A DNA stretch of 64,000 bases from a bacterium (GCA_021811585.1 JAJZOG010000007.1:57459-121458); one strand, 5' to 3'. Shown: positions 24,152 to 44,952, counted from the first letter of the stretch. Made by a program: numbers and translations. The notes: generated from the letters alone by a model not told the origin.

Positions 24152-24171
24152 ATTATGCTTTTGGCAAATTT

Positions 24172-24201: not shown

Positions 24202-24229
24202 AATAGAGCAAAAACTCTTTGCCTTTTAT

Positions 24230-27105: not shown

Positions 27106-27201
27106 TAGGATATTGGGATTAATGACAGGCAACGCAAGAAAATAGCGGATGGCTTTTTCCAAATTTTGCATTTAATAATTAATTAATAAAAACAAAATAA
27201 A

Positions 27202-27495: not shown

Positions 27496-27496
27496 T

Positions 27497-28075: not shown

Positions 28076-28079
28076 GGAA

Positions 28080-29372
28080 TTATCGTTTATGCCTGTGCTT
28101 AATAGGTTTTTTTAAATTGTCCGCATCCGCCATCGCCAAAACCATCCGGGGAATTGCCGCGGGATATTCTTTGCCGCGTAGAAAAATCAGCGCGAATATC
28201 AGCACGGCGAAAATTGGCAATGCGCCAATGGCTATGGTCAGCGACGGGCCTACCGCGGTAAAAAGAAATCCGCCGATAATTGGGCCAATTGCCCAGCCGA
28301 CATCTTCGGCAACAACAATCGCACCGCTTACTATGCCGTCGCTATCGTGCGAAGAATCAATCCTTTCAAGCCAGGACCAAAGCAAAACGCTGGACATTTC
28401 GTCTCCTGCGGTGGCGAGAAAACCGATAAGCAAAAATATTAAATTTAAATTAAAACCGAGCATTAAGCCCATGACAGCGAATATAAGCAGCCCCCAAAAA
28501 ATAAGCGTTTTCTTTTGGTAGCGGTCTGCCAATTTTCCAAGGCCAGCGCCCAAGACAACTGCCGCCAAATCGAAAACGCTAAGCCCAAAGGAAAGAGTAC
28601 CTGCTTTTGCCTGGGATGCGATTACAAGGGGAACCACAAACCAGATTAGCGCATAGAAAATTGCGCCCGCAAGATTTTCCAAAGCAAGTATTGTGCTTGC
28701 AGGATTCAAATTCCTCAATGCTTGTAAAGTTTTATTCAGCCAATGGCGGCGGATGTAATACGCATGATGCGGATGACTTGTTTGCCGCGCGCGGATTTCG
28801 CTTAAAGATCCGGGGTTTGTGCGCGTGCCAGAGAGGGCTATAAGCGCGGCGATGAAAATTGCGGAAAGCACTATGCCGATAACAATTATCGGGCTATGGA
28901 CAATAAAAATAAGCAGAAGAGCCGCGCAAACAATCCCAAGCGATGTGAAGGCGTGCTGAATGCCCATGTATTTCCCGCCCTCTCTTGGCGGCGCGGCTGA
29001 AAGCACATAAGCATTGATGCCGGGATTGAAAAATAACCAGCCCGCAATGCTTAGGATGATAGTAGCAATATAGATGACTGTTGAAAAAGGGAAAATAAGA
29101 ATTACCGCGCCCGCAAAAAAAGCAAAAGTGCCAATGGTCAGAAGGCGGATGTAGCCATATTTATCGAGCAGGAAACCTGCCGGGACATCAAATAAGAGCT
29201 GGATAGTGCTTGCTCCGCCAATCATAAGGCCTATAATCCACACGGGCAAAATGCGGCTTCCGAGAACCGGCAAAAGGGTGTAGTGCAATCCGGCGGCAAA
29301 TTTGAACAAAAAAATAAAAAGCCAGAACGGGAGAAGCTGTAGCCAGGAAGTGGAGGAGGATTTTTGGGGCAT
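28080..29372 (-). CDS. MFS transporter
   Basis: 430 aa, about 12 TM helices in two 6-helix halves with a central loop; typical MFS composition (e.g. 'LDKYGYIRLLTIG'). Confidence 0.65.
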   Translation of the reverse strand: MPQKSSSTSWLQLLPFWLFIFLFKFAAGLHYTLLPVLGSRILPVWIIGLMIGGASTIQLLFDVPAGFLLDKYGYIRLLTIGTFAFFAGAVILIFPFSTVIYIATIILSIAGWLFFNPGINAYVLSAAPPREGGKYMGIQHAFTSLGIVCAALLLIFIVHSPIIVIGIVLSAIFIAALIALSGTRTNPGSLSEIRARQTSHPHHAYYIRRHWLNKTLQALRNLNPASTILALENLAGAIFYALIWFVVPLVIASQAKAGTLSFGLSVFDLAAVVLGAGLGKLADRYQKKTLIFWGLLIFAVMGLMLGFNLNLIFLLIGFLATAGDEMSSVLLWSWLERIDSSHDSDGIVSGAIVVAEDVGWAIGPIIGGFLFTAVGPSLTIAIGALPIFAVLIFALIFLRGKEYPAAIPRMVLAMADADNLKKPIKHRHKR

Positions 29373-29534
29373 AAAATTTTTTATCCCAACGTTGTCGGGA
29401 GATTTTGCGTAAAATTGCTGCGCAAATATGAAATTTGGCGCGTACTTTGGTTTGGTGTCGCACCTTTGAAGGTATTATAAGCAAATTTTAGAAGTTTGGG
29501 AAAAACTGGTAAAAATGGACTTTTGGAATAAGGA

Positions 29535-30710
29535 TTATTTTGCGCTTTTATAAATATAGAAAAAATCTTTTTGATAGCCGTTTAGGTATTGTTTTGAGCC
29601 GTCCTGCATTTCTTTATTTAACGGGGCGGAGTTATATTTTCCCGCGCCCGTGCTGTTAAAAATATTGAATCTGACCCAGTACGGATTAATATCCAGCTGA
29701 ATGGCATTAGCTGCTCCGGCAAGCCGCAGCGCTTCCGCGAGAGTGAGCGGGCTTAAACTGTTTCCGGCCGCAAATATCAGATTCCCGTTTGCCGTTATGC
29801 CGATGCCGGACCGCCATGTAAAGGTGTTGGCGCCAACAACACGCCCCCAAATTTTTTGGCTGTTTGGATCAGAAACCGTGATCACCCCGTTTTCTATAAG
29901 CATCGGGCCGTTTTGCCTTATAAATGTGGCGTTCGATAAGTTTTGCCCGGCATAGTTAAATATTTTAACAGAACCGTTTTTGAAAGCGGCAATTGTGCCT
30001 AAATTTTTTTGCAGCGGCAGGTAAGTGGTTTTGCCCACAATCATGCCGTATTGGCCGTCTCGATATTGAAAGCCGCCGTCAAAAGCCGCCACCAAGTTCC
30101 CGCTCAGGATAATTTTTTTCGGCACTTTGCCGGGACCGTATTTGCCAACCTTGCCTCCGGGTTCAACCGTGCCTGCCACGCTGCCGATGCCGAGCGAAGA
30201 CATGTCCATTTTTACCAGCGAGGCGATCGCAAAGTTTCTGCTTGCATCGGGGCGGATAAATGTGCGGGCCATCACCTCTTTGTCCGGGGAAATGACGAGC
30301 GGAATATTGTGCCACACTCCTTCGCCGGCCAAAGGAGCAAATGAAAGATTGGCCGGCAGGGATTGCAAATTCAGCAAAGACGGCAGTTGTGGATTTGTAG
30401 CTGCGCTTGAGAATTGCGGAGCCAGCGGCTGCTTAAAATGATAGACTACTTTATTGACATGGTCTGAAAAATTAAAAAAAATCTTTTCCAGAAATACGAT
30501 TTGCCTGTCGCCGAAAATCGGACGCAAATAATCGTCGGTGAGCTGCGCCGCCAGCGGCGTATCAATTTTAATGAAAGCAAAGCCAAGAACAGCAACAGCA
30601 ACTGCGCCAAGGAAAAACCATTTCAGGAACTTTTTGAGAAAAATAACGTATATTTTATTTTTATCTGCAGGGTGGCGATGATTGGAAGAGTATTTGTTTA
30701 TATACATCAT
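29535..30710 (-). CDS. Secreted/anchored protein, possibly phosphodiester glycosidase (NAGPA-like) family
   Basis: N-terminal TM; 'GNLVAAFDGGFQYRDGQYGMIVGKTTY' and 'ANAIQLDINPYW' resemble that family. Weak call. Confidence 0.3.
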   Translation of the reverse strand: MMYINKYSSNHRHPADKNKIYVIFLKKFLKWFFLGAVAVAVLGFAFIKIDTPLAAQLTDDYLRPIFGDRQIVFLEKIFFNFSDHVNKVVYHFKQPLAPQFSSAATNPQLPSLLNLQSLPANLSFAPLAGEGVWHNIPLVISPDKEVMARTFIRPDASRNFAIASLVKMDMSSLGIGSVAGTVEPGGKVGKYGPGKVPKKIILSGNLVAAFDGGFQYRDGQYGMIVGKTTYLPLQKNLGTIAAFKNGSVKIFNYAGQNLSNATFIRQNGPMLIENGVITVSDPNSQKIWGRVVGANTFTWRSGIGITANGNLIFAAGNSLSPLTLAEALRLAGAANAIQLDINPYWVRFNIFNSTGAGKYNSAPLNKEMQDGSKQYLNGYQKDFFYIYKSAK

Positions 30711-30815
30711 CTTTGTTTTGATATCCGGAATGAGCGTATATTTATATTCTAACCCGGTTTCATGAAGATTTGATGAAAGCCCTAAAATAGGGCGCGCATG
30801 CCTGCAAATGCGAAA

Positions 30816-31274
30816 TTATTTGTTTTCCGGCTGTGCGCTTTTTTTGCTGAAAGCGAAAATGTAAATTATTTCCAGTATGCCCAAGGTATTCACAATCAGA
30901 AGTACAATAAACCATGTTTTGTGCGAATTCCGCGCGGATTTCCAGAGCGCCACGCCTTTCCAAATTAATGTCCAGACAATCAGCGCTGCCAGTAAAATTT
31001 TAACGGCAGGGGAGAACGGGAAAAGAGGCAGGTCGCCGTTTAAATACCAGCCATGATTGTATTTCACGATTTGTATGGTTTTGCCGCCCGCGGTTTTGCA
31101 GATGCCGGAATTCGGCGTCTTATTCAACAATTGCGTGCAGCCCCTGAAAGCATAGTAATTTTCAAAACTGCTGTGTGCGCGGCTGAGCTTGTGCACCTGA
31201 AAAGCCCCGAATATGATTATTAATATTACCGCCAAGCCCAATAGGACGGTTAAGAGTTTGTGCTTTTTTGCCAT
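30816..31274 (-). CDS. Hypothetical three-TM membrane protein
   Basis: 152-aa ORF; hydrophobic helices at the N-terminus and C-terminus. Confidence 0.4.
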   Translation of the reverse strand: MAKKHKLLTVLLGLAVILIIIFGAFQVHKLSRAHSSFENYYAFRGCTQLLNKTPNSGICKTAGGKTIQIVKYNHGWYLNGDLPLFPFSPAVKILLAALIVWTLIWKGVALWKSARNSHKTWFIVLLIVNTLGILEIIYIFAFSKKSAQPENK

Positions 31275-31376
31275 AAATACAGATTAATTTTAATTGATCG
31301 ATTGTATTTTTAATTATATAATTGTGTACAAAGGTATTATAAAGGGTTTTGCGATGCTTTGCTAATAAAAAGATTT

Positions 31377-31925
31377 ATGCCAGAAGAATACTACGATATC
31401 TACGATGAAAACGGCAATCCTTTGGGGATTTCAAAACCCCGCTCAGAAGTCCATGCAAACGGCTATTGGCACAGGGCTGTCCACATTTGGATTTTAAATT
31501 CCAACGGGGAATTGTTGATACAAAAACGGGCGGAAATGAAAAAATCTTATCCCGGCCTTTGGGATGTTTCTTCAGCCGGACACGTTTCTGCCGGTGAATC
31601 AGCGGAAGCAGGTGTGCTTAGAGAATTACAGGAAGAACTTGGCATCAAAGCCAAACCATCCGAATTCAAATATCTGTTTGCCATCACCGAAGAAAGCATC
31701 TAATATGGGGGCAAATTAATAGATCATTTATTTGATTCGGTTTATTTAATGCGCAAAAATTTAAATCTTAATGATTTGGTTTTGCAAAACGAAGAAGTAT
31801 CCGAAGTTGCCTGGATGCCGGCCTCAAAATTATTGGAATTGGCCAAGGGTGAAGATGAAACCTTTGTTGACCGCAGGGAAGAATATAAAAAATTATATGA
31901 GATATTAAAATCTCCGCATCCTTAA
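31377..31925 (+). pseudogene. NUDIX hydrolase interrupted by a single in-frame TAA
   Basis: Nudix box 'GHVSAGESAEAGVLRELQEELGI' precedes the stop. Reading straight through the 'atc TAA tat' stop gives the expected Nudix C-terminus '...NEEVSEVAWMPASKLLELAKGEDETFV...' for 73 more codons. Confidence 0.6.
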
Positions 31926-32563
31926 AGGTTGCGGGGATTATGGTAGGACAACAATTTCCAGCGGAATGCCGTGGAACATTCCACCAGCTGATGTGCCGGA
32001 CACTCAAAAGTGAAAGTTCTTCCAGGGTTTGGAATAATTCTGATTATTCCACGGTTTTGCCACCTGCCGATCACATCCGTTAACGGCAATTCCACTACTC
32101 CGGTGTGCGGGTTGGCAGCATGAATTAGGGTTTGGTTTGATGAAACCATGCCCACGTGTCCAATGCCTTCTTCGGGATTAAACCAATAGAGGTTTCTCCT
32201 GCCAGTGCTGAATATCAGATCGCCTTCATATAATTTTGTGGAAATGTCCGCAATCTCTTGGAATCCCAAATAGCGCTGGTCAATTGGATGCCTGGGCAGC
32301 CATATGCCTTTTTGCGCATACAGCCATTTTACGAAGCTGGAACAATCCACTGAATTTGGCGCTTCTTCGGCCCGGCAAAATCGAACGTATTTGGAGATTC
32401 CAACGCACTGGCGCGCCAATGCCGTAAGATTTTCCGTGATAAGATTAAACCCCCTTTCCAAAAGAATTTTGATGGCTTCCTCATCGGAGAAGGGAAGCCG
32501 GAGAGTTGAAAAATCCACAGCACAGCGGTTGCCAACCGCAATATACGATGATCCCGTGTCCAT
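31922..32563 (-). CDS. NlpC/P60-family peptidase
   Basis: Catalytic Cys motif 'VDCSSFVKWLYAQKG'; downstream 'GDLIFS' and 'GHVGMV'. Start at the internal ATG, which has an AGGAGG RBS. Confidence 0.7.
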   Translation of the reverse strand: MDTGSSYIAVGNRCAVDFSTLRLPFSDEEAIKILLERGFNLITENLTALARQCVGISKYVRFCRAEEAPNSVDCSSFVKWLYAQKGIWLPRHPIDQRYLGFQEIADISTKLYEGDLIFSTGRRNLYWFNPEEGIGHVGMVSSNQTLIHAANPHTGVVELPLTDVIGRWQNRGIIRIIPNPGRTFTFECPAHQLVECSTAFRWKLLSYHNPRNL

Positions 32564-32752
32564 TTGATCCTCCTTTGCCCGGACAAACAAAAACTGCCCG
32601 AGAAGGCAGATTTCAAATCTAAAAAGCAAAAGCAGATTGAAAACCTATCTTCTCGGCCAGTTTGAGAAGTTCCAAATAAATCCGGACCAGGTTTTGATAT
32701 TTTTGCGAATTAACATAGTTTGAGATTAAGGCATATAGAAAATTCAGAAAGG

Positions 32753-33301
32753 TCACTCATTATTTTTTTGCAAGAATTGTTTTAATTTATCAAAAGGTTT
32801 AATTTTTAAATAAGTTTTTCGATCGTCTTCTTCGTTAAGCTCGGCCCTTGTTGACGAATATCCTTCGGGTATGAATATTCTGTCAAAACCAAAACCGTTT
32901 TCGCCTGCCGGGGTTTGCGGAATTTTGCCGCCCAAACCGTTTTCAAACATTTGCAAATCTTTGCCGTCAAAATAGCCAAACATGCATTTTGCAATGGCTT
33001 CGCGCGTATTGCCGTTTACCAGGTTGCAAATTTGTTCTTCCGAAAGTTCCTCAAGAAAATATTTAATCAGCGGCCCCGGCAACCTGCCCAAGGCCTTGAA
33101 TTCCAGCGAAACATCTTCGACTATAACCGGGCCTTGGATGATTTCGTATGCTTGGCGCACTTTATGCCCGATAATTTTTTTTAAATCCAGGGATTGTATT
33201 TCGTCCAGGTCCAATTTAACATGTTTGATCGGCAGGCCAAGATATTTGGCCAAGTAATCGGCTTTGTTTTGGTTGCCGGTTATGAACGTAATTTCTTTCA
33301 T
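32753..33301 (-). CDS. Non-canonical purine NTP pyrophosphatase (RdgB/Ham1 family)
   Basis: 'ITFITGNQNKADY', 'VIVEDVSLEFKALGRLPGPLIKYF' and 'FGFDRIFIPEG'. Confidence 0.8.
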   Translation of the reverse strand: MKEITFITGNQNKADYLAKYLGLPIKHVKLDLDEIQSLDLKKIIGHKVRQAYEIIQGPVIVEDVSLEFKALGRLPGPLIKYFLEELSEEQICNLVNGNTREAIAKCMFGYFDGKDLQMFENGLGGKIPQTPAGENGFGFDRIFIPEGYSSTRAELNEEDDRKTYLKIKPFDKLKQFLQKNNE

Positions 33302-33595
33302 ATATGAAGTATGAAGCTTAACAAAGGAAGCTTAACAAAAAATCGGCAAAATAGCGATTTTCTTTGTATTTCTGGGTATTTCTGGGTGGTGTCTCAAGCT
33401 CTCAAACATTTAAATACGGTGTTTTAAAAACTTTACAACAAGCGATGCATATAATATAATCCAATATTAAAATTGCGGTCATAAGATAGCAGGTTTTCTT
33501 AAAAATCTTTTGCCTTATGTTCCCAATGTTCCAAAGAAATTGGGCGCAGAACCTTGATGAGTAATCAAGGCATTTCAACTTGTTTGGAGGATGCC

Positions 33596-34198
33596 ATGAG
33601 TAATGGCAAATTCACTTATACGAAGGAACAGGAAGCGAGTCTCTTCGCGCAGTTTTCTAAAGCAATGGAAATTGTCCGCGAGAGGCAGCGACCGTATGAA
33701 ACTGTCAAGCAATCCTTACAGGCCATAATAAGCGATTGTGAAATTCAGATCAAGCCAAAAATTCTTGCCGGCGCAGACGGAGACAATGTCTTCCATGTTA
33801 CCGGTAATTTCGGTTCAGCGTCTTTGGCACTGGATGCGGGTAAGTATGATGCCCGTTATGGTTATGCTGAGTCGGCAAGGGCAATCGCAAAGGTTCCAAT
33901 GATTGTCCAGCCGGTTGACTGCAAGGTAAGAGCGGTTCCGTTGGGGCAATTCAGAAAGAACGCCGAGATCTTTGGATTGTATCCAAAGATTGCTGGCCCA
34001 ATGACACTGTTTACTTTGGGCGTGAAATTTCCTGAAAAACAGTTCGGTGGGTCAATTTTCGTGATTTGGAAAGATCATAAGGGCCAGTTCTGGTATGCTT
34101 TCCTGGGCGGGACCCGCGGTTGGCGCAGCGTTAATGTTTGCCTGGAGGATCCGAACCAGGGGTGGGCCAGCCACGATCATGTCCTTCTCTATGAGTAA
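33596..34198 (+). CDS. Hypothetical protein
   Basis: ATG with GGAGG RBS 7 nt upstream; 200-aa ORF with no recognisable motif. Confidence 0.45.
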   Translation: MSNGKFTYTKEQEASLFAQFSKAMEIVRERQRPYETVKQSLQAIISDCEIQIKPKILAGADGDNVFHVTGNFGSASLALDAGKYDARYGYAESARAIAKVPMIVQPVDCKVRAVPLGQFRKNAEIFGLYPKIAGPMTLFTLGVKFPEKQFGGSIFVIWKDHKGQFWYAFLGGTRGWRSVNVCLEDPNQGWASHDHVLLYE

Positions 34199-34203
34199 GG
34201 TTA

Positions 34204-34266
34204 GGGCCTTGGATTCTTTAAACTTTTTGTTCTTGGATCCTTGGCCCTTTTTGTTTATTTTTTGAG
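34204..34266 (+). terminator. Hairpin plus T-tract, probable terminator
   Basis: 'agggccttggat...atccttggccct' followed by 'ttttgtttatttttt'. Confidence 0.4.
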
Positions 34267-34289
34267 GAGTATTTTCGAGGGATATTTTT

Positions 34290-34784
34290 TTAGTTTCTAT
34301 TAATTAGATATTCAAGTTGCCCTATTTCGTAAAAAGCTTCTTTAAGTGGATTTTTCCTGAAAAGTTTTGAACCAGCACTATCCGATGGGGGCTTGATTTT
34401 TTTAGTTGGTAAAATTTTTGCAATTTGATGCCACTGCTTTTTCATAGTTTTCAGGTTTTGAGCATTTGGTATAAATTCCACGGTAGAATACCCATTTTTT
34501 TCTTCCACCACGTTGACTCCATTTTTTTTCAATTTTATTTTGATTTGCTTGTCAATTACGAAGAAACCGTCAATGGCTTGTTTTTCCCCGTAAAAGCCAG
34601 AGGACCATGTAGGATATCCTTTTTTATTAAATTCTCTAACGGCTTCTCGTACTTGAGGTTCAAGCATTTCCAAGTAGCACCCCAAGTATAATTCTTCCTT
34701 TGTTGGCTTAGGATTAAAAATTATGCGTTTCTTTAGATCTTCCAGAGATATTTTATGAGCTTGTTTTCGAATTTTATTTGTCAT
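34290..34784 (-). CDS. Hypothetical protein
   Basis: 164-aa Lys-rich ORF; no motif recognised. Confidence 0.4.
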   Translation of the reverse strand: MTNKIRKQAHKISLEDLKKRIIFNPKPTKEELYLGCYLEMLEPQVREAVREFNKKGYPTWSSGFYGEKQAIDGFFVIDKQIKIKLKKNGVNVVEEKNGYSTVEFIPNAQNLKTMKKQWHQIAKILPTKKIKPPSDSAGSKLFRKNPLKEAFYEIGQLEYLINRN

Positions 34785-34850
34785 TTATATTTAGGAGGCA
34801 TCCGATACTAAAATTTCTGGCAATGCATTTGGGTTCAGTGCTGCTATAAT

Positions 34851-35819
34851 TTAGATTGATCCAAGCCAATTAATAATTTTATCAGCCATTTCTTTTTCCT
34901 TGCCAAAATAAAAGTGCGCGGCTCTGGCAATTATATCAATGTCAAAAATCGGGGCATTCGCGGCTTTGCGCTTAATAATTTCCAACGCTTCTTTTTGGGG
35001 AATTATTACCGCGTTATCTTTTTCTCCCAAGAAAGCAAAAACAGGTATTTTAATTTCGCTTAATAGAGAAGTTTTATCCGGATCATAAGTATTAAAAATA
35101 TCTACCGGGTAATCGCGGCTGTTCAAATTTAGGTAAGTATTTGCGGACAGATAATACCAATCCCAAATTTTTTGCGTAAGCATGTCTCCGCCTCGTCCGT
35201 CTTCAACCATTGCTTTTGATTCATCCAGTAGTTTTTTATGATAAGTTTCTTTTTCGGCCAAACCGACCATGTCCGGAGGAGACATTTAAATGAGCTTATT
35301 TATTCTGTTGTCCTGGGTTTTTGCAATATAGTAGGCAACCTTGACAGCGCCCAAGCTGTGCCCGCAAAGTACTGTTTTTTTATATCCGTTTTGTTTCAAG
35401 TAATCAATCGCCGGCTTAATATCCAGCAGGCATTCTTCAAAAATTTCATAAGCGTTCCCTATGCGCTTATATTTTTCGTCCGGCCCTGCGATCGGAAAAT
35501 CCGCAATTAAATCATGCCCGCGAGTATTGATGCTCATAAAAGCGTAGCCATGGCTCGTAAGTTCCCTCGCCATTGTGTCTAAAAACCCATTTTCATAAAA
35601 ATTTCTGGCCATGCCGTGGACATGCAGATATGCCATATTCGTCTTTTCCGATGGCTCATAAAGCAATCCTTGCAGTATCAATTTATCTTCGGTTGTAAAG
35701 CGAATAAATTCAGTGTTCATACACATAGAATAGCAAAAAAACGCCGAAGAGGCGATTAGTGCCGAAAAACAGCTTTTTGAGGAGCAAGCGCTAGGTGGTA
35801 AAAATGTTAAATAAGACAA
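34851..35819 (-). pseudogene. Alpha/beta-hydrolase-fold protein interrupted by one in-frame TAA
   Basis: The two minus-strand ORFs are contiguous and in the same frame, with the stop at 35286-35288 directly followed by ATG. The upstream half carries the nucleophile elbow 'CGHSLGA'; the downstream half carries the C-terminal part of the fold. Confidence 0.6.
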
Positions 35820-35985
35820 AGAGACAGTCCTGGTATAGTGGACAAGCCAAGGAATTATGAAAAGGGAGTATAATTAGATTAGTAAAAAAATTAGCCAAAA
35901 GGAATTTATGGCATTAGGAAAACATGGCCATAACAAGGATACAAGGATACAGTGAGAGATAAAGAATAATGCAAAAACAATAAAG

Positions 35986-37170
35986 ATGAAAATAAAGTTT
36001 TTTATCATAGCTTTATTATTGTTAGCCGCAGGGTGTAATCAAGTTCACCAGGCATCCGAACAGGCAGTTCCCAGTAAAGCCGCCAGCGCAAAGAATGGCG
36101 ATGCAAATATAATCGCCACAAAGCCCACGGAAAATTGTCTAGATGGTTTTGCTTTGGTTCCAGGGAGCGCTTTATACAAAACGCCGGATTTTTGCGTGAT
36201 GAAATATGATGCCAAAGCAGTTTTTGCTGCGGATCCTTCAATAGGAATTCAACCTCAACCGGGTGATCCTTGTTTCGGTACAACCAACGCATATTGGGAA
36301 ACTCGCGGCCAACCGACAGGTACTTACAAAAATAATGGCACTGGCTGTCAGGCCACTGCTGAAAATGGCAAGGAAATAAACTCGGTGCCAAGCGGTGCGC
36401 CGATAGCTTATATACCTGAAGTTGGCAGCGGCACAAACAATGCCGTCAGTTATTGCCGACACATGGGTTGGCACTTGCTTACCAATGCCGAATGGATGAC
36501 CATTGCCCGCAATGTTGAACAAGTATCGGCCAACTGGTGCAATCCGGATGGCACTGCTTGCGGAGCAGCACCTGGCACGCCCGGAAAAATCTTGGCCAAC
36601 GGGCATAATAATGCTCAGCCAAATAGCGCTTTGGTTGCCTCAGCCGACGACAGCCAGGCATGCTTTGGCACAACCCCAGACGGCTCGAAAATTTGCGGCC
36701 ATGCCAATTCTCAAAAACGCACTTTGCAGCTTAGCAACGGACAAGTGATTTGGGATTTTGCCGGAAATGTTTGGCAATGGGTTGGAGGCACTGTCCGGCG
36801 CAAAGACGAACCGCAGTCCCAAACCAACGGCAAATTAGATAGCGGCTGGTTATCCAGCGAGTTTGCTCCTGGGTCGGCGAGCTTGGGAGTTTTAGATAGC
36901 GTGATTATTAATAACGGGCGAGGCCTGTCAATGGGATATGATTCTTTTCGGCCATCAAATCCAAATTGGAATTCCAGTAATGGGGTTGGCAGAATTTTTC
37001 ATTTTAGCGCGGCTGCTGATCAGACCTCTACCATTTATGGATTTATCCGCGGCGGCCAATGGAATCATGGCGCTGTTGATGGTGCCTTCAGCGTGCATCT
37101 GACTCCGGTACCAAGTAAAACCAACCTTGAAGATGTTGGTTTTAGGTGCGTTGCCGCTGTTACTCCATAA
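35986..37170 (+). CDS. Lipoprotein with a formylglycine-generating-enzyme (FGE/SUMF1)-type sulfatase-modifying domain
   Basis: Lipobox 'LLAAGC'; 'YCRHMGWHLLTNAEWMTIARN'; C-terminal 'IRGGQWNHG...EDVGFRCV'. Confidence 0.6.
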   Translation: MKIKFFIIALLLLAAGCNQVHQASEQAVPSKAASAKNGDANIIATKPTENCLDGFALVPGSALYKTPDFCVMKYDAKAVFAADPSIGIQPQPGDPCFGTTNAYWETRGQPTGTYKNNGTGCQATAENGKEINSVPSGAPIAYIPEVGSGTNNAVSYCRHMGWHLLTNAEWMTIARNVEQVSANWCNPDGTACGAAPGTPGKILANGHNNAQPNSALVASADDSQACFGTTPDGSKICGHANSQKRTLQLSNGQVIWDFAGNVWQWVGGTVRRKDEPQSQTNGKLDSGWLSSEFAPGSASLGVLDSVIINNGRGLSMGYDSFRPSNPNWNSSNGVGRIFHFSAAADQTSTIYGFIRGGQWNHGAVDGAFSVHLTPVPSKTNLEDVGFRCVAAVTP

Positions 37171-37176
37171 TCCGGC

Positions 37177-37824
37177 CTATTTAACCTCGGATATGATCGC
37201 TTGGTCTTCTTTAAATAAATATTCGCTCAATTTAAAAATACTGTAAGACATGAACGGCGCCGCTAAAACATCTATTGAATAGTGTACGTGTGCCAGAAGC
37301 ACAGATATGCCAAAAATTGCCGACGCCAGCAGATATATAAAGCGCCACAGTTTTTCGCGCCACAAAATTAAAGCCATCAAAAATGGCAGACCAGTATGCG
37401 CGGAGAAAAAGTATCCTGTTTCCAAACCCAAGGCTACGTATAAATGATCTAATGGGCCCGGACCTGGCACAATTTGGCCGGGATAAATTCCCAGGTGAGT
37501 TACAGCGACGAAAACGGCGCGCAGCGCAAGGAAGATTGAAAGAGTTTTTAGCGTAAAAATAAGATATTTCGGTTTTGATAAAATTACAAGGGCGCTGATC
37601 AGGATTGTCCAGAGTGCGCCCTCAACAATGATTAGGTTTAAATTTAGTATCGGCAAATGATCCAATAACAGGTCGCCAACGTATCTGGTGGCCACGTGGC
37701 TGGAATAAGTTCCTGCATAATATTGAAAAACTAAGCTCAGAGCCAGGATTAACAATGCTGTATAAAACGATCGGCGACGCGGTTTAGTGAAGAGTTGTTT
37801 ATATTGAACGATGATTTTGTTCAT
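37177..37824 (-). CDS. Polytopic membrane protein, possibly PAP2-superfamily-like
   Basis: Six hydrophobic helices; 'FSAHTG' and 'LLAHVHYSIDVLAAP' loosely fit PAP2 motifs 2/3. Weak call. Confidence 0.3.
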   Translation of the reverse strand: MNKIIVQYKQLFTKPRRRSFYTALLILALSLVFQYYAGTYSSHVATRYVGDLLLDHLPILNLNLIIVEGALWTILISALVILSKPKYLIFTLKTLSIFLALRAVFVAVTHLGIYPGQIVPGPGPLDHLYVALGLETGYFFSAHTGLPFLMALILWREKLWRFIYLLASAIFGISVLLAHVHYSIDVLAAPFMSYSIFKLSEYLFKEDQAIISEVK

Positions 37825-38065
37825 ATCCGGTTCTTGCTAAGCGGATAATTATGTTTAAAACAGGTAATCATGTTTAGTGGTCATCCGATACTAAGTATTC
37901 TTGGCGGTGTGCTTGGGTTAAGTGCCAAAGCTTTTGCCAAAGCTTTGAGAATATTATAAGGGAATTTTGGGAGTTTAGGAAAAGAGGTTTTTGAGGAGAA
38001 AGGGCCACGGTAGGGAAGTGTAAAATGAGACAAATGAGGCAGTCATAGGAAATTGGAATAGTACC

Positions 38066-38509
38066 TTATTGAGAGGATAAAATAGTCGATTCCAAGAATT
38101 GGATATAATCTTTGGGTAAGCCATGCTCTTTCCCTCCATCAATACAAAATTGAAGGTATTTTTTATTGATATGCAAATTATCATGAACAGCTTCGCTGTT
38201 TGCAATATATGTCGCGGCTTCCATAATATTTGTTCCGATGCTAACTTTTACAACATCTCTTATATAACCAATCTCAAATTCATCTAAAGTATTTAACTGA
38301 TCCTCGTCTAAATTAAAACAAACTCCGTAAACATGATTATCGTTATTTCCTGTGAATACAATATTTGCTTTGCCCGAGCCATCTTTAGCTAACTTATTAA
38401 AAGCAAGTTTATATTTTTTTAAAATAGCCCTTCCCAAACAGCCACATTTACCAATACGTTCCTCTAATCTTTTGGTAAGCATGTTTGAACCAAAAGCAAA
38501 ATAAATCAT
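38066..38509 (-). CDS. Gamma-glutamylcyclotransferase (AIG2/GGCT-like) family protein
   Basis: 'MIYFAFGSNMLTKRLEERI' N-terminal signature. Confidence 0.7.
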   Translation of the reverse strand: MIYFAFGSNMLTKRLEERIGKCGCLGRAILKKYKLAFNKLAKDGSGKANIVFTGNNDNHVYGVCFNLDEDQLNTLDEFEIGYIRDVVKVSIGTNIMEAATYIANSEAVHDNLHINKKYLQFCIDGGKEHGLPKDYIQFLESTILSSQ

Positions 38510-38559
38510 TAAGGTCTATTTACTGTTATATCAAAGGGTCTTCCGATACTAAATATTCT

Positions 38560-38653
38560 TGGCGGAGAGGGAGGGATTCGAACCCTCGATACAGGTATTA
38601 CCCCGTATACCGGTTTAGCAAACCAGCGCTTTCGGCCACTCAGCCACCTCTCC
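38560..38653 (-). tRNA. tRNA-Ser (anticodon GCU), long variable arm
   Basis: Reverse complement 'GGAGAGGTGGCTGAGTGGCCGAAAGCGCTGGTTTGCTAAACCGGTATACGGGGTAATACCTGTATCGAGGGTTCGAATCCCTCCCTCTCCGCCA'. Anticodon loop TTGCTAA. Confidence 0.75.
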
Positions 38654-38709
38654 GTGAGGCGCATCCGCGAACAAGTAACGGGCTTCTGCCGCGGCCGTTT
38701 AACTTTGGT

Positions 38710-38738
38710 ATTATATCCAAGTGGCTGGTTTTTTTCAA
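38710..38738 (-). promoter_or_regulatory. Sigma70-type promoter TTGAAA-17-TATAAT for tRNA-Ser(GCU)
   Basis: Minus-strand read 'TTGAAAaaaaccagccacttggaTATAAT', about 56 nt upstream of the tRNA 5' end. Confidence 0.45.
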
Positions 38739-38895
38739 TCGCATGTAGAGTTAACACCTGTAGAGTTAACGCATAGCATAAGGTGACACCTGTTAATTTT
38801 GACAGCGGCCAAAAGTTGCCAAGGCCAAGCGCACGCAAGGGCGCCATCGTCCGCTCATATTTAATCTCGCGCTTATCTTTAATCTCTCGCCATTT

Positions 38896-39699
38896 TTAAT
38901 CTCTTGCCAATGTCAGACAAATGATTTCTCGCGCGCCCGCTGAAAATAGTTGTGCGCAGCAGGCCTTCATGGTTGAACCGGTTGTAAAAACATCATCAAT
39001 TAAAATTATTTTTTCCGGCATTGGCTGAGACATCTCTCGAGCCATTTTTTCCGTCTTTTTCTTTGGCACAAAAATTGTTTTCCTTTGCGCGTGTTCGAGG
39101 CATGCAAACGGGGATTTCGCAAGGTTTGCGGCTCTTTGATCCTTGTTTAATTCCGCTTGCGCCGGGGTGTTTGCAATTTTGGAAAGCAGTGGAACAGTGC
39201 TCGCACCAAATTCGGCTGCAATGGTATTTGCCAGAATTTGGGATTGGTTAAACCCCCGAACGTTTTGCCTGCGCGAATGCATGGGCACGAAAGTTATTTG
39301 ATATTTTGGAAAGTTTATGGGGGGATTAACCCGGCATGCAAATTCCGCTAAAATTTTCGCGCAAATTTTTCCTGCTTCGGCAATTTGTTCATATTTGAAA
39401 GCGTGGATGAGTTTGGCGATTGAGGCGTATTCGCAAGCTGATAAAAATCGGCAGGGCGCCGGCGATTGTATTGCCAGGCGGCAGGCCTGATGCGTGAAAC
39501 CGTTTTCGCTTTCCTTGCGGCAGACAAAACAGATTTGCCGCGCAAATTGTATTTCGGCAATGCAAAGCCCGCAAAAAACAGGCCCTTCTGCGCCGCATCT
39601 GGCGCAATGCGAAGGAAAAAGGCAGGAATCCAGCCAATTCCAGGCGCGCTTAAAAACATGCTTTATTTCGGCAATGGTTTCGGACATAAAAAATCCCAT
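38896..39699 (-). CDS. comF: ComF-family protein (double zinc ribbon + phosphoribosyltransferase domain)
   Basis: N-terminal Cys pairs 'CARCG...CGLC' and 'CFVCRK...HQAC'; PRTase motif 'IILIDDVFTTGSTMKAC'. Confidence 0.75.
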   Translation of the reverse strand: MGFFMSETIAEIKHVFKRAWNWLDSCLFPSHCARCGAEGPVFCGLCIAEIQFARQICFVCRKESENGFTHQACRLAIQSPAPCRFLSACEYASIAKLIHAFKYEQIAEAGKICAKILAEFACRVNPPINFPKYQITFVPMHSRRQNVRGFNQSQILANTIAAEFGASTVPLLSKIANTPAQAELNKDQRAANLAKSPFACLEHAQRKTIFVPKKKTEKMAREMSQPMPEKIILIDDVFTTGSTMKACCAQLFSAGAREIICLTLARD

Positions 39700-39797
39700 A
39701 AGTTTTTACTATTTATACTCTTATGGGATTAAAAAACTGTTAAATTTCGCGGCAAACCTAAATTTTTCGGCAGCGCGTAAATTTTTCGGCAGCGCGG

Positions 39798-42350
39798 TCA
39801 TGCCACGGCTTTTACAACTTTTTTGATATTAATTCCTTTTTTATCGGCATCAATCCTTATGGTGTCGCCGGTTTTAATTTCGCCGGAAATTAATTTTTCA
39901 GCCAAAGGATCTTCCACGTGTTCCTGAATGTTTTTGCGCACCAGCCGCGCTCCTTGCGAAGGGTCAAAACTTTGGTCTGAAACATATTTTACGGCTCCGG
40001 GCGTGTACTGCAGGTTCAGTCCTTGCGCAGAGCGCAAATGCCCTGCCAGTTCGCTGATCTGGAGTTCTGTAATGGATTCAAGTTCTTTCATTCCCAAAGG
40101 CCTGAAGACCAGGGTTTTATCTATTCTATTGATAAATTCAGGGCGGTATTGCTCTTTTAATGATTGTAAAACCCGTTCTTTGATTTTTTCATAGTTTTTC
40201 TCGGTTTTAGCGACTTCTTTTTGATCGCCGTCTGCTTCGGCAAAGCCGATTTTGTTTGCCTGGCGGTTCAAGTCCGAAACACCGAGATTCGAGGTCATGA
40301 TGATTATGGTGTTTTTGAAATTCACTTTTTTGCCGGCAGCATCCGTAAGATAGCCGTCTTCGAGAATTTGCAAAAGCACATTGAAAACGTCCGGATGCGC
40401 TTTTTCCATCTCGTCGAAAAGCACCACTGAGTACGGTTTTCTGCGCACCGCTTCGGTGAGCCGTCCGCCTTCTTCATAGCCGACATATCCCGCGGGCGCA
40501 CCGATTAAGCGGGCGACATTGTGCTTTTCCATGAATTCTGACATGTCCACGCGGATAAGCGCGTTTTCATCTTCAAAAACTTCGCGCGCAAGGACTTTTG
40601 CGGTTTCGGTTTTGCCCACGCCCGTTGGCCCGAGGAAAATGAAAGAGCCCAGCGGCCGCTTTGGCGAAGTGACGCCCGCGCGCGAGCGGCGGATTGATTT
40701 TGCGATCGTGGAAACAACGTCGTCTTGTCCGATAATTTTCGATTTCAATATTTTTTCCAGATTTGCCAGTTTAAGCGCTTCGGTTTTTACCAGCTTGTTC
40801 AGCGGGATTTTTGTAATTGATGAAACTGTTTTGGCAATATCCGCAGCGGCGATTTCGCGTTTTTCCTTGGTATCCGTATAAGCCAGGGTTTTGCGCAAAT
40901 CATTCATTTGCTTTTGCAGCTTGTCGCCTTGGATGCGCAGATGGTCTGCGGTTATGAAATCCTGGGAAAGGACTGCTTTGGTTTTCTCGTCTTCCAAATC
41001 CGACATTTCCTGCTCAATCCTCTTGATTGTGCGCGATGTTTTGGAATCGTAATTGATTGTTTTAAGATATGCCGCGGTCTCGTCTATTAAATCCACCGCT
41101 TTGTCCGGCAAAAACCTGTCTTGAATATATCTTGCGGAAAGTTCAACCGCTGCTTTTATGGCTTCGTCGGAGATTTTAATTTTATGGTGCTTTTCGTAAT
41201 TCGGGCGCAGGCCTTGCAGAATGGCAACAGCTTCCTCCTGCGTTGGTTCTTCAACTATAATGGGCTGAAAACGGCGTTCCAGTGCCGCATCGTGCTCAAT
41301 GTGTTTTTTGTATTCCGCCAAAGTTGTTGCGCCGATTGCGCGGAGTTCGCCGCGCGCCAACGACGGCTTCAGAATATTGGCGGCATCCAAAGAGCCGGTT
41401 GTGGCTCCGGCGCCGACCACAGTATGCAATTCGTCTATAAAGAGGATTATTTTGGGATTGTCTTTTATTTCGTCTATGATTTGCTTCAGGCGGCTTTCGA
41501 ATTCTCCGCGGAACATTGAGCCGGCGACAATCAGCGCCAAATCCAATGCCAGGATTTTTTTATCCAAAAGCGATTCCGGCACTTCATGCTTGACGATTGC
41601 CAAGGCAAGCCCTTCCACGATCGCTGTTTTGCCAACGCCAGGTTCGCCGATCAGCACCGGATTGTTTTTCGTGCGCCTGTTTAAAATGCTTATCATCCTT
41701 TCCAGTTCTTTTTTTCTGCCGATAACAGGATCTATTTTCCCCGCTGCCGCGCGCTTGGTTAAATCGGTTGTGAAATAATCCAGGGCAGAGGTCTTAAAAC
41801 CAGCGCCGCCGGGCATGCGCTCTTCCTGCTGGAAATTGTTGAAATTGCCGCGCCCTGTCGGTGCCATTCCGTTTTCATCCATAAGGTTCGGGAACCTTGC
41901 CATGTTTTCAAACACTGCTGTTAAATTATTTTTAAGCCCTATCATATCAATGCCAAGCTTTGAGAGGATGACTTTGGCGCGATTGGTATTCATGTCCAGG
42001 ATGCCGTGCAGGAAATGCTCTGTGCCGATAAATTGGTATTGGTATTTGCTGGCAATGACAGCGGATTTTTCTATGGTTTGCTTGAGGTTTTCCGAAAGCA
42101 CGGGTTTCCAGCGCTCGGCAATGTGGTTTTGGTTCACTTTTTCGAGCTCGTCGCGCATGATGTTTAAATTTATATTATTTTTGAGCAGCACCTCAGCCGC
42201 AAAAGAGCTTTTTTCTGATATAATTCCATAGAGTAGGTGCTCTGTGCCGATATGGTCGTGCTTTAATTGTTCGGAAATAAGCTGCGCCGAAATTAGCGCG
42301 TTTTTCGCGCGGGTTGACAGCCGTTCTAGAATGAAAGCGAAATTGTTCAT
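39798..42350 (-). CDS. clpC: Clp/Hsp100 AAA+ chaperone, ClpC-type (two Clp-N repeats, two AAA+ modules)
   Basis: 'GEPGVGKTAIVEGLA', 'LFIDELHTVVGAG', 'FLGPTGVGKTETAKVLA' and 'VVLFDEMEKAHPDVFNVLLQILEDG'. Confidence 0.8.
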   Translation of the reverse strand: MNNFAFILERLSTRAKNALISAQLISEQLKHDHIGTEHLLYGIISEKSSFAAEVLLKNNINLNIMRDELEKVNQNHIAERWKPVLSENLKQTIEKSAVIASKYQYQFIGTEHFLHGILDMNTNRAKVILSKLGIDMIGLKNNLTAVFENMARFPNLMDENGMAPTGRGNFNNFQQEERMPGGAGFKTSALDYFTTDLTKRAAAGKIDPVIGRKKELERMISILNRRTKNNPVLIGEPGVGKTAIVEGLALAIVKHEVPESLLDKKILALDLALIVAGSMFRGEFESRLKQIIDEIKDNPKIILFIDELHTVVGAGATTGSLDAANILKPSLARGELRAIGATTLAEYKKHIEHDAALERRFQPIIVEEPTQEEAVAILQGLRPNYEKHHKIKISDEAIKAAVELSARYIQDRFLPDKAVDLIDETAAYLKTINYDSKTSRTIKRIEQEMSDLEDEKTKAVLSQDFITADHLRIQGDKLQKQMNDLRKTLAYTDTKEKREIAAADIAKTVSSITKIPLNKLVKTEALKLANLEKILKSKIIGQDDVVSTIAKSIRRSRAGVTSPKRPLGSFIFLGPTGVGKTETAKVLAREVFEDENALIRVDMSEFMEKHNVARLIGAPAGYVGYEEGGRLTEAVRRKPYSVVLFDEMEKAHPDVFNVLLQILEDGYLTDAAGKKVNFKNTIIIMTSNLGVSDLNRQANKIGFAEADGDQKEVAKTEKNYEKIKERVLQSLKEQYRPEFINRIDKTLVFRPLGMKELESITELQISELAGHLRSAQGLNLQYTPGAVKYVSDQSFDPSQGARLVRKNIQEHVEDPLAEKLISGEIKTGDTIRIDADKKGINIKKVVKAVA

Positions 42351-42456
42351 TTGTGATTTGGCAGTTATGGTTTATGAGTTCGTTTTTTTGCGCCCTCAAT
42401 TAATATAATTATAATGAATTTTATACCGAAGCCAGGCGGCTGTCAAAGGCAAAACC

Positions 42457-43017
42457 ATGCCGAAAATTAAAAAATTTAAAGGAAAGTTAAGAAATATTTC
42501 ATGCCAGGATTATGCATTGCGTTTGGTGTCTGAAAGGATGCTTGGCAGCGGCAATTTATCCGAAAAATTGAAGCGAAAAGGGTATGCCGAGGATGAAATT
42601 TTGGCGGTAGTTAACAGGTTAACAGAATTGGGTTATTTGGATGATCGGCAGTATGCACAAATTTATTTTGAAAATCTGCTGAAATATAGAAATTTTGGAT
42701 ACTATGGTGTAAAAAAGAAATTGTTGCAAAAGCGGCTGCCGGCTTTGCTTGTGGACGAGCTTTTGCGCGGCTTTTCTATTGCGCGCGAATTGCAAATCGC
42801 GCGGCGGGTATTTGAGGCCTCGCGCTTGGGCGCTTCGGGTGCTTCGGGAGCTTCGGGCGCTTCGTATTTGCGCGGCGCACGCGGCCGCGGAGCTTTTGGT
42901 GCTGCCGGTTCTTCCGGTTCTTCCGCTGTTTTGCGGCAAGAAAAAACCGCGAGATCTTTGCGTTCGCGCGGCTTCAGGAGCGAGGTGATCGTAAAAATTC
43001 TATCCCAAATCCATTGA
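42457..43017 (+). CDS. recX: RecX-family regulatory protein
   Basis: 'YALRLVSERMLGSGNLSEKLKRKGY' typical RecX helical repeats; (ASG)n low-complexity insert. Confidence 0.65.
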   Translation: MPKIKKFKGKLRNISCQDYALRLVSERMLGSGNLSEKLKRKGYAEDEILAVVNRLTELGYLDDRQYAQIYFENLLKYRNFGYYGVKKKLLQKRLPALLVDELLRGFSIARELQIARRVFEASRLGASGASGASGASYLRGARGRGAFGAAGSSGSSAVLRQEKTARSLRSRGFRSEVIVKILSQIH

Positions 43018-43971
43018 GCGCAGGCGCCTTATTCTTTCTTCTATCGGCGGGTGCGTATCAAAAAGCCCGGCGAAAATTCCGCGCGATTTTCCCGCGCGGT
43101 CCTGGAGCGGGTTGGATATGTATAAATGGGCTGTTGCTTTGTTGGCTTCGCGGAGCGGCATTTGGTTTGCTTGAATTTTTTCAAGCGCCGAGGCCAGGCC
43201 TTCGGGATAGCGCGTAAGCAGTGCGCCGGATGCGTCGGCCAAATATTCGCGCTTGCGCGAGATGGCCAGCTGTATGATCGTGGCGATAATGGGCGAGAGG
43301 ATTGCCAGCGCGATTCCGATTATCAGGAAAATAATTTGTATTTGCCCGCCTTCGCCGTCATTGGAGCGCCTTGCGCCGCCGAAAAAAGTGAAGCGCAAAA
43401 ACCAATCGGCAAGCAAAGTTATGAGCCCCGCAAGCACGACGATAATTGTGGAAAGGCGGATATCGTAATTTCCGACGTGCGACATTTCGTGGGCAATAAC
43501 TCCTTCCAATTCTTGTTTGTTGGTGTTTGCAAGTAGGCCCGATGTCACGCAGATTACGGCATGATTCGGATCGCGCCCGGTTGCAAAGGCGTTCATGGCG
43601 CGGTCTTCTATTATATATATGGATGGCGTCGGCAGGCCCGCGGTGATGGCAAGGTTTTCAACTGTCCTGTAAAGTTCCTGGTTGGCTTCGCGCGTCACCG
43701 GTTTTGCTTGCGAAATCGCAAGCGTGATTTTGTCGCTGTAAAAATAGCTTAAAAGCGCGGTAATGACGCTGAAGAGAACCGCGAAAACCAAAATGCCGGG
43801 ATTGTTAAGCGCCACATTGAAAAAATATCCGAGCGCGATTATAAAAACCAAAAATAAAGTTATAAAAAGCGCTGTCTTGCGCTTGTTCGAAGCAATCTCA
43901 GTATAAATGAGCATTGATTTTACAACCCTGTTGAATTTTGGCTGCTGCTGCGGTTGGGGATTGGTTTCCAT
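43000..43971 (-). CDS. htpX: Zinc metalloprotease HtpX (M48 family)
   Basis: 'AHEMSHVGNYD' HExxH motif; 4 TM helices; C-terminal 'FDTHPPIEERIRRL'. Confidence 0.8.
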   Translation of the reverse strand: METNPQPQQQPKFNRVVKSMLIYTEIASNKRKTALFITLFLVFIIALGYFFNVALNNPGILVFAVLFSVITALLSYFYSDKITLAISQAKPVTREANQELYRTVENLAITAGLPTPSIYIIEDRAMNAFATGRDPNHAVICVTSGLLANTNKQELEGVIAHEMSHVGNYDIRLSTIIVVLAGLITLLADWFLRFTFFGGARRSNDGEGGQIQIIFLIIGIALAILSPIIATIIQLAISRKREYLADASGALLTRYPEGLASALEKIQANQMPLREANKATAHLYISNPLQDRAGKSRGIFAGLFDTHPPIEERIRRLRSMDLG

Positions 43972-44007
43972 GGCTTAAAATTAACTTGGGTTTAAATTAG
44001 TTTTACC

Positions 44008-44550
44008 TTAAAAACTAACTTGCGGCACGGCTTTATCGGTTTCTTCGGTTCCAAAAAAATCGCGCTTGCCAAAACCGAGCATTTTGGCAATCACATTTCC
44101 CGGGAATTCCTGAATTTTAATATTATAATCGCGCGCGTTGCTGTTATAAAATCTGCGCGCCGCCTGGATTTTATCTTCCGTATCGGTAAGATCGCTTTGC
44201 AGCTGTTGAAAATTTTGGCTCGCTTTTAATTCCGGATAATTTTCCGCGACAGCAAAAATTCCCATTATTGATTTGCTGAGGTTGTCTTCGGCCTTTTGTT
44301 TTGCGGCCAGGCCCTGTGCGGCTTCTGCCTGCGCCCGCGCTTCGGTAACGTTTTGGAAAACGGTTTTTTCATGGGTCGCGTATCCTTGAACGGTTGCTAC
44401 GAGGTTCGGTATAAGATCGTGCCTGCGCTTAAGCTGGACATCAATATCGCTCCAGGCCTCATCCACGCGGTTTTTGGATTTAACCAAAGAATTGAACAGC
44501 CCTATTGCCAGCAGCAGTATTACGGCGATTATTATTATGGTTATGAGCAT
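44008..44550 (-). CDS. LemA-family protein
   Basis: N-terminal TM plus 'NSLVKSKNRVDEAWSDIDVQLKRRHDLIPNLV' signature. Confidence 0.75.
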   Translation of the reverse strand: MLITIIIIAVILLLAIGLFNSLVKSKNRVDEAWSDIDVQLKRRHDLIPNLVATVQGYATHEKTVFQNVTEARAQAEAAQGLAAKQKAEDNLSKSIMGIFAVAENYPELKASQNFQQLQSDLTDTEDKIQAARRFYNSNARDYNIKIQEFPGNVIAKMLGFGKRDFFGTEETDKAVPQVSF

Positions 44551-44658
44551 TGTTTTCCTTTTCAGCCGGCTTGGCGCCTGAACAAATATGCCTTTTGCCG
44601 ATCTTTATTTTTTAAGTCCTTTATATTATAATACCAATAGAAATATTTTGAAAGAATC

Positions 44659-44940: not shown

Positions 44941-44952
44941 GTTTTACGCAAC

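Follow-up and report, generated by a model that had tools for sequence, protein, structure and literature searches.

Three copies of a short direct repeat lie at and beside the gene for tRNA-Ser(GCU) in a stretch of bacterial DNA of 64,000 nucleotides (nt) (GCA_021811585.1 JAJZOG010000007.1:57459-121458), here called the window. We interpret the three repeats, together with a degenerate fourth site, as junctions left where small cargo elements integrated site-specifically, one after another, at this tRNA gene's 3' end, with a probability of about 0.8. The host is a Saccharibacteria-like bacterium of the Candidate Phyla Radiation (CPR), and the feature is a recombinase-less, partly decayed example of elements that target tRNA-Ser and are associated with a large serine recombinase (LSR). 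The first-pass annotation had proposed att-like scars of tandem integrated islands at this tRNA without an integrase, and the proposal is supported by an attachment-site set from two related loci (L117 and L105; loci are given L-numbers), by a family of junction motifs in metagenomes and by relatives that carry a recombinase. The enzyme associated with the sites in these relatives is an LSR, which is unusual for a tRNA target.

Each element would carry an attachment site composed of a left (P) arm, the core CCGC and a right (P') arm. The P' arm, called A, would be CAAGAATATTTAGTATCGGAAGACC, and the P arm would be a tRNA-T-loop-like sequence, GG(C/T)ACTTAAC.... Recombination with the tRNA end (...CTCTCCGC), with crossover probably inside CCGC, would put P' directly behind the tRNA and give the attL-like copy 1. 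A new insertion would push the older junction outward, leaving the tandem P-CCGC-P' joints that are seen as copies 2 and 3. The newest element would then lie beside the tRNA and the oldest and most decayed farthest off. Read from the tRNA, the order would be A1, the gene of a gamma-glutamylcyclotransferase/AIG2-like protein (GGCT) and P; A2, the PAP2 and FGE genes and a degenerate P; a hydrolase pseudogene and a short P; and A3 with the gene of a 164-residue protein and what follows it (Table 1). Copy 3 is, in this order of insertion, probably the oldest recognisable junction. The recombining enzyme would be an LSR of a family very abundant in CPR bacteria.

The decay of the repeats fits this order. 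Over the first 28 nt counted from GCCA, identity of the P' arm to the metagenome consensus drops away from the tRNA, from 28/28 in copy 1 (nhmmer E = 4.9e-13) to 25/28 in copy 2 (E = 6.1e-10 for A and 5e-12 for the whole junction) and 22/28 with one indel in copy 3 (E = 8.5e-4). This gradient and the outermost core, changed to TTGC, are what insertion at the tRNA end with displacement and decay of older units would leave, and the hydrolase pseudogene also sits in an older segment. The repeat measures 26-45 nt, and its second copy falls within 37878-37935. The repeat of copy 1, 'tccgatactaaAtattcttggcgg', occupies 38542-38565, and the near-identical repeat of copy 2, 'tccgatactaaGtattcttggcgg', occupies 37884-37907. 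That of copy 3 extends over 43 nt (34799-34841) and is longer and more diverged than the other two. In the plus strand, 'tccgatactaaatattcttggcgg' terminates at 38565 and its final six bases are the CCGCCA of tRNA-Ser(GCU). These sequences had been read correctly in the first-pass annotation, with coordinates off by 2-4 nt. The 11-mer TCCGATACTAA has three exact matches in the 64-kb window, which are the three copies; with up to one mismatch there are 5 matches, compared with 0.59 expected, and a 26-mer with up to three mismatches gives 2 matches, compared with 0.00 expected. A profile built from metagenome junctions alone matches just the three copies in the window, with nothing else significant in nhmmer.

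The left arms of copies 2 and 3, GGCACTTAACCCAAGCACAC and GCACTGAACCCAAATGCAT, are of the kind found to the left of A in metagenome contigs. Homology of the copy-2 P arm to its counterparts in L085, L090 and L107 extends beyond 100 nt and takes in the GTCTCATTT repeats and the CCCTTATAATATT box. A 55-nt repeat at 35766-35820, 73% identical to 37980-38034, belongs to the left arm and marks the fourth, A-less junction. The segment between copies 2 and 3 had been described as a single unit; its cargo genes were correctly named, but the segment is divided by this degenerate junction at about 35.75 kb. No further junction was found in 25.9-34.3 kb by eye, with regular expressions or with nhmmer. 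Rfam gave no known RNA family at the repeats, only the tRNA match and a sub-threshold antisense match. The latter is 'Plastid-psbl-rps4' at 38563-38618 (plus strand; 53.4 bits against a gathering score of 68), antisense to the tRNA, and is taken to be an artefact of tRNA-like sequence. A structured-RNA reading of the repeats was rejected, as Rfam is empty there and a T-arm-like hairpin seen by eye in the P arm of copy 2 is not conserved in copy 3. A viral origin was likewise rejected, the motif having 0 matches in IMG/VR.

The structure of the attachment site is best seen in L117 and L105. The two carry the same tRNA-Ser(GCU), with upstream flanks 87% identical and downstream flanks about 90% identical, and in L105 11.1 kb is inserted between the tRNA and the downstream flank, compared with the empty L117. 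The pair gives attB, attL and attR, and the P-O-P' form is found in L088 and L108. CCGC is the sole sequence common to all four junctions, a very short attB/attP core, and A is therefore the P' arm of the element and not host DNA or a duplication of the tRNA. The four-way set comes from these relatives (L117, L105 and L088/L108), and the window belongs to it through homology of its arms. In the window, the tRNA-Ser(GCU) 3' end, ...CTCTCCGC(CA), is the source of the B arm and the CCGC core. The repeat had been regarded as a copy of the tRNA 3' end with its flank; CCGC(CA) is indeed derived from the tRNA, but the remainder is the element's own P' arm beyond the 4-nt core. Behind its tRNA, L117 also has a ladder of one- and two-gene cassettes, each ending in a P arm, and these appear from their translations to encode NUDIX-like, kinase-like and GNAT-like proteins.

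A metagenome scan with the pattern GCCANNAATN{0,1}NTTAGTATCGGAWG found A in 35 contigs of CPR-like bacteria with a median G+C content (GC) of 0.315. The sequence of A, GCCAAGAATATTTAGTATCGGAAGACCCGAGTGCC, is almost invariant among the 35. To the left of A, four kinds of sequence occur: full tRNA-Ser genes whose T-arms differ (13 contigs; anticodons GGA, GCU or UGA); a tRNA-Ser 3' fragment of 12-25 nt; a few conserved non-tRNA arms, such as ...CCCTTATAATATTGCTATGTGGTGGTACTTAACTCGAGTAGCCC or ...ACGGTTCCAGCCCGAGGTAGCCC; and, in a few contigs, other sequence. The match in L113 lies inside an open reading frame (ORF) and looks like chance. At sites without A (L117, L114, L115 and L104), the tRNA-Ser gene encodes no CCA and reads ...CTCTCCGC followed by AAC, GAA or AAT, while with A inserted it reads ...CTCTCCGCCA; the element therefore supplies the encoded CCA end. 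In two contigs, part of a TTAGTATCGGA(A/T)GACC box occurs a second time in tandem, some 40-50 nt downstream of the first copy (L098, oriented, 4716-4800; L116, oriented, 343-410).

The largest protein cluster near A consists of proteins of 420-500 residues encoded on the strand opposite to the tRNA. Intact versions are present in L092, L098, L104 and L118, L105 has a broken one, and remnants are left in L085, L107 and L111. Those of L098 and L104 have Resolvase (PF00239), Recombinase (PF07508) and Zn_ribbon_recom (PF13408) domains, which identifies the cluster protein as an LSR. In L104, the 3' end of the LSR gene overlaps tRNA-Ser(CGA). The family has at least 8000 homologues at E <= 1e-20; the best 120 of these are at least 71% identical, all carry the three domains, and their names refer to Patescibacteria, Parcubacteria, Nomurabacteria, Moraniibacteria and Pacebacteria. 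A test independent of the motif started instead from LSR homologues (72-76% identity with the query) in six genomes. Each of the six has an A-like site on the opposite strand, at a distance of 1.5-10 kb beyond the 3' end of the LSR gene (nhmmer E from 1e-10 to 1e-2). Four of the sites abut a called tRNA-Ser (GGA, GCU, GCU and UGA), one abuts a tRNA-Ser cut by the end of the locus, and one only a tRNA-like fragment. We infer that the LSR would catalyse recombination at A sites.

Restriction-modification or other defence genes border the LSR gene on its tRNA-distal side, and intact LSR elements look like defence islands. In L123-L129 (locus coordinates 1-10000), such genes always stand next to the LSR in divergent orientation; they include type I restriction-modification, MmeI-like type IIG, PLD/SNF2, CBASS-like CD-NTase/Cap15 and Abi. 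The LSR gene of L104 (oriented, about 9935-12810) is flanked by perfect inverted repeats of about 65 bp, and the next unit, with an ORF of 310 codons, has terminal inverted repeats of about 85 bp; the joints read CCGC, GCGG and CCGC. A palindromic CG crossover, allowing insertion or inversion in either orientation, is possible there. Pfam showed no phage structural genes among five A-bounded proteins, seven ORFs of the L105 element and most precomputed gene tables of the LSR loci, with a terminase-like gene in L124 as the exception.

Within the window, Pfam shows no recombinase among the main ORFs tested at 25.3-42.3 kb, and tblastn with two LSR queries finds no LSR in the whole 64 kb, in agreement with the earlier statement that no integrase is present. 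A recombinase gene inside the element is found in relatives and not here, and the window copies are therefore remnants or non-autonomous. Because the LSR is absent, the cassettes are fossils or mobile only with LSR supplied in trans, and they are probably inactive at present.

Comparison with related genomes was suggested by the first-pass annotation and agrees with integration. The window ClpB is 66% identical to that of L001, an uncultured Saccharibacteria metagenome-assembled genome (MAG), and the two are syntenic on both flanks (window 20001-25925 with L001 21011-14625, and window 38552-45000 with L001 13584-6400). The 12.6 kb between them (25925-38552), directly 3' of tRNA-Ser, has no counterpart in L001. 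L116 is syntenic across PEBP, the sigma factor, tRNA-Ser(UGA) and tRNA-Arg, with unrelated genes between PEBP and its own A site. The bounded DNA is thus variable, being absent in L001 and replaced by different cargo in L116. One and the same tRNA-Ser(GCU) is also found with differing cargo behind it in L092, L105, L098, L118 and L117. The order ClpB-ComF-tRNA-Ser is kept in L001, L083 and L084, and in L083, whose ComF is just 53% identical, ...CTCTCCGCCATAAATATTTAGTATCGGAAGACC stands right behind the same tRNA while the other intergenic DNA differs. Two independent Logan contigs of different species, L082 (end at 11125) and L084 (end at 8395), both stop exactly at ...CCCTCCCTCTCCG, the discriminator base of tRNA-Ser; the assembly graph probably branches there, with a k-mer of the shared tRNA leading into differing downstream sequence. 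At the same locus, L001, the closest relative at species level, has three tandem copies of a 20-nt tRNA-Ser 3' end, GAATCCCTCCCTCTCCGCCA, about 200 nt apart (13557-13576, about 13747-13766 and about 13956-13975). They have no A motif behind them and form a classical tRNA-fragment ladder, which suggests a second integration system at this tRNA.

Several observations weigh against serial integration by an LSR. Copy 3 is a weak match (E = 8.5e-4) and has lost the CCGC core, and no recombinase was found in the window by either search. The window's own species yielded no variant in which the site is empty or the element excised: its ComF, on record as a 263-residue gene call and not as the full ORF, led only to the same genome and one contig, the sole other assembly, which ends at the tRNA. 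The insertion in the window is therefore read from homology to other lineages. Each copy stands shortly before a gene of the same strand, and an att role is hence hard to separate fully from one as promoter or leader. Unlike characterised LSR attP sites, the two arms have little dyad symmetry; inspection by hand gave no more than a weak inverted match of 8 nt (GTACTTAA / TTTAGTAT) with the core at its centre. The link of LSR and A is one of co-occurrence, seen in six of six LSR-anchored genomes, and these six come from the most similar homologues (72-76%).

The alternative that survives best, though it is improbable, is that the repeats are a promoter, leader or operator motif of a small host regulon comprising the GGCT, PAP2 and 164-residue genes on the minus strand, with incidental overlap of the tRNA. 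The three copies lie 15-58 nt upstream of a same-strand start codon, A in the metagenome loci is almost always followed by same-strand ORFs, and TAGTAT in A and CCCTTATAATATT in the P arm look like -10 boxes. However, there are no further copies in the 64 kb. The distance to the start codon is variable, 15-58 nt here and 100-220 nt from A elsewhere. There is no conserved -35 element, and a consensus promoter scan passed over A itself and reported weak (9/12) sites immediately downstream of the first two copies. On this spacing, the missing -35 and the scan, a promoter was rejected as the main explanation. The same tRNA moreover exists with and without A, the difference being the 11.1-kb insertion, and A is near-identical across hosts with different tRNAs and genes, which fits mobile DNA and not a host regulon. 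It is possible that a promoter is carried as part of the element.

Slightly less probable again are classical tRNA islands formed by a tyrosine integrase that has since been lost, with a coincidental LSR association. Tyrosine integrases are the majority class among known tRNA-integrating elements, and Williams in 2002 reportedly wrote on sublocations. Duplications of the 20-nt tRNA-Ser 3' end (GAATCCCTCCCTCTCCGCCA), of the classical kind, occur at this locus in L001, L086 and L114, and more than one integration system therefore uses this tRNA. The window itself lacks both marks of the class: its segments contain no integrase, and 6 nt of tRNA are repeated, compared with at least about 15 nt. 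Identity between attB and attP is limited to CCGC, below the usual overlap of 7 bp or more with longer identity. No tyrosine recombinase was found among the recurrent proteins near A, and LSR homologues predicted an A/tRNA-Ser site in six of six genomes.

Two further explanations are very improbable. One, which needs no mobile element, is that the tRNA flank was duplicated locally as a segment or spread by gene conversion, or that copy 3 arose by chance. It would agree with the divergence of copy 3 (22/28, one indel and a mutated core) and with the lack of a recombinase in the window, but it is largely refuted by intervening genes that are mutually unrelated, by arms homologous to junctions in unrelated genomes and by a chance expectation of about zero. 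Repetitive extragenic palindromic (REP) or miniature inverted-repeat transposable element (MITE)-like dispersed repeats would explain short, intergenic and partly palindromic copies (ATACT-A-AGTAT in copy 2), yet just three copies exist in the 64 kb, at one locus and in one orientation, where many dispersed copies would be looked for; they have no terminal inverted repeats, and the motif is tied to tRNA-Ser in other genomes.

Pfam agrees with the gene content first described for the segments, with GGCT in the first and the PAP2-like, FGE-domain and broken alpha/beta hydrolase genes in the second. The in-frame TAA of the hydrolase splits it into two ORFs of 144 codons each. This stop (35283-35291) is a single TAA followed directly by ATG in the same frame, and the public annotation of L081 has two genes there. 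Homologues of the GGCT at 43% and 36% identity lie in unrelated contexts without the motif. GC of the bounded segments, whose comparison had been proposed, is low in the two genes directly after copies 1 and 3 (0.32 for GGCT and 0.337 for the 164-residue protein). The window mean is 0.455 with a standard deviation of 0.043 in 500-nt windows; the pair thus lies about 3 standard deviations lower, near the median of the A-bearing contigs. Left of the 164-residue gene, no junction is recognisable in 27106-34289 and there are no profile matches. This part may be older accreted cargo or ordinary variable genome, and the islands probably reach further left, to about 27.1 kb. Small accessory genes of the region include MGMT, PEBP, MFS, NAGPA, NUDIX, NlpC/P60 and Ham1, among others. 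On the other side of the tRNA, three tandem units of 17-18 nt (ATCTTTAATCTCTCGCC-like) cover the end of the ComF-like gene and the DNA right behind its stop codon, on the way to tRNA-Ser (38857-38908), and a 19-mer, TAAATTTTTCGGCAGCGCG, is perfectly duplicated in tandem at 39759-39796, between the ClpB and ComF-like genes.

Table 1. Junctions, arms and genes at tRNA-Ser(GCU) in the window, and attachment sites of related loci
Feature	Position	Strand	Description
Copy 1, attL-like junction	38536-38565	minus	core CCGC (38565-38562) and P' arm CAAGAATATTTAGTATCGGAAGACCC (38561-38536)
Copy 2	37878-37907	minus	core CCGC and P' arm CAAGAATACTTAGTATCGGATGACCA; P-O-P' junction with P arm, between two tandem cassettes
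P (left) arm of junction 2	37908-38065	minus	GTCTCATTT repeats, CCCTTATAATATT (-10-like) box, GGCACTTAACCCAAGCACAC
Copy 3	34796-34845	minus	short P arm GCAGCACTGAACCCAAATGCAT, core mutated to TTGC, diverged P' arm CAGAAATTTTAGTATCGGATGCCTCC
Fourth, degenerate junction	35721-35880	minus	distal P-arm sequence GTCTCTTTGTCTTATTT, CTCCTCAAAAAG, CGGCACTAATCGCC kept; no recognisable P' arm
tRNA-Ser(GCU)	38560-38653	minus	ARAGORN; Rfam tRNA, 59.6 bits
GGCT, 147 aa (segment 1 cargo)	38066-38509	minus	Pfam PF13772, PF06094
PAP2-like membrane protein (segment 2)	37177-37824	minus	Pfam
FGE-sulfatase-domain lipoprotein (segment 2)	35986-37170	plus	Pfam
Alpha/beta hydrolase pseudogene	34851-35720	minus	Pfam Hydrolase_4, DLH; in-frame TAA at 35286-35288
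164-aa protein	34290-34784	minus	opens the following segment (third or fourth); without Pfam match; GC 0.337
Remaining non-syntenic region	27106-34289		214-aa ORF, Ham1, NlpC/P60, NUDIX, DUF5652, NAGPA, MFS, 192-aa ORF, DUF5654
attB	L117		..CTCTCCGC joined to AACATCGTGCTAGC
attL	L105, after tRNA		..CTCTCCGC joined to CAAGAATATTTAGTATCGG.. (also given as CTCTCCGC joined to CAAGAATATTTAG...)
attR	L105, 11.1 kb further		..GAGGTAGCCCGC joined to AACATCGTGCTAGC
P-O-P' (attP)	L088, L108		..GAGGTAGCCCGC joined to CAAGAATATTTAG..

Functionally, the closest known systems are the composite islands of staphylococcal cassette chromosome (SCC) and pseudo-SCC elements, together with the tycheposons. In SCC, large serine recombinases target a single conserved housekeeping gene at its 3' end, successive insertions build tandem arrays with short direct repeats between the units, and many members without a recombinase (pseudo-SCC, ccr-less) are thought to rely on supply in trans. 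The elements described here share the LSR, the 3' end of one housekeeping gene, the tandem units and the many recombinase-less members. They differ in the target, which is tRNA-Ser and not rlmH, in their CPR hosts, and in the LSR, which appears to be of a different family than Ccr. Their conserved repeat of about 26-35 nt is mainly element arm, compared with the 15-18-nt integration site sequence of SCC, and their cargo is restriction-modification or defence genes and small housekeeping-type genes.

The tycheposons of Prochlorococcus resemble them in streamlined genomes, in cargo beside specific tRNA genes including tRNA-Ser, and in tandem junctions. Among tycheposons, 910 of 937 elements use tyrosine recombinases and the rest LSR, and the islands are bounded by partial tRNAs, while here a 4-nt core with an element arm and an LSR are found (Hackl et al., bioRxiv 10.1101/2020.12.28.424599). 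Tandem tRNA/tmRNA islands of the Islander/TIGER type, with tyrosine integrases, have the same tRNA 3'-end hot spot, junction ladder and decay of older islands; they have another class of recombinase and an identity block of another length, and the window repeats 6 nt of the tRNA only. Small, mostly co-oriented and often single-gene cassettes at one site, with the newest nearest and structured repeats between them (L117), recall integrons. The asymmetric P/P' arms and the tRNA anchor are different, and there is no IntI, no attI/attC hairpins and no Pc; Pfam gave no tyrosine recombinase and Rfam nothing at the repeats. Serine-integrase phages and elements (phiC31, Bxb1, A118, TP901-1) share the Resolvase, Recombinase and Zn ribbon domains and attB/attP with a very short common core. 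To our knowledge, the characterised elements of that kind have their sites in protein-coding genes or intergenic DNA, not in tRNA 3' ends. We found nothing specific in the literature on CPR/Patescibacteria LSR elements or on LSRs at tRNA-Ser, which is no proof of novelty, and the LSR element family in CPR appears undescribed.

A wider proposal is more tentative, and we hold it at somewhat less than even odds. The window scars may belong to a very large, apparently undescribed CPR/Patescibacteria family of LSR-driven elements that target the 3' end of any tRNA-Ser isoacceptor and build integron-like, co-oriented arrays of cassettes with one to a few genes. Recombinase-less cassettes would be shuffled in trans, and the near-invariant P' arm would serve as a portable recognition site that also supplies the encoded CCA of the tRNA. 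The genomes of CPR bacteria are tiny, few mobile elements have been recognised in them, and exchange of accessory and defence genes among them is poorly understood for this reason. If the proposal is true, the patch of 11-12 kb with odd accessory genes and a pseudogene in the window is accounted for, and tRNA-Ser followed by ..TTAGTATCGGAAGACC.. would be an island-boundary marker for CPR MAGs. The elements would also enlarge the set of natural LSRs for which attB and attP are inferred, possibly of interest to genome engineers, and one recombinase family would be a major route of gene flux across the radiation, acting through one class of site, the tRNA-Ser 3' end.

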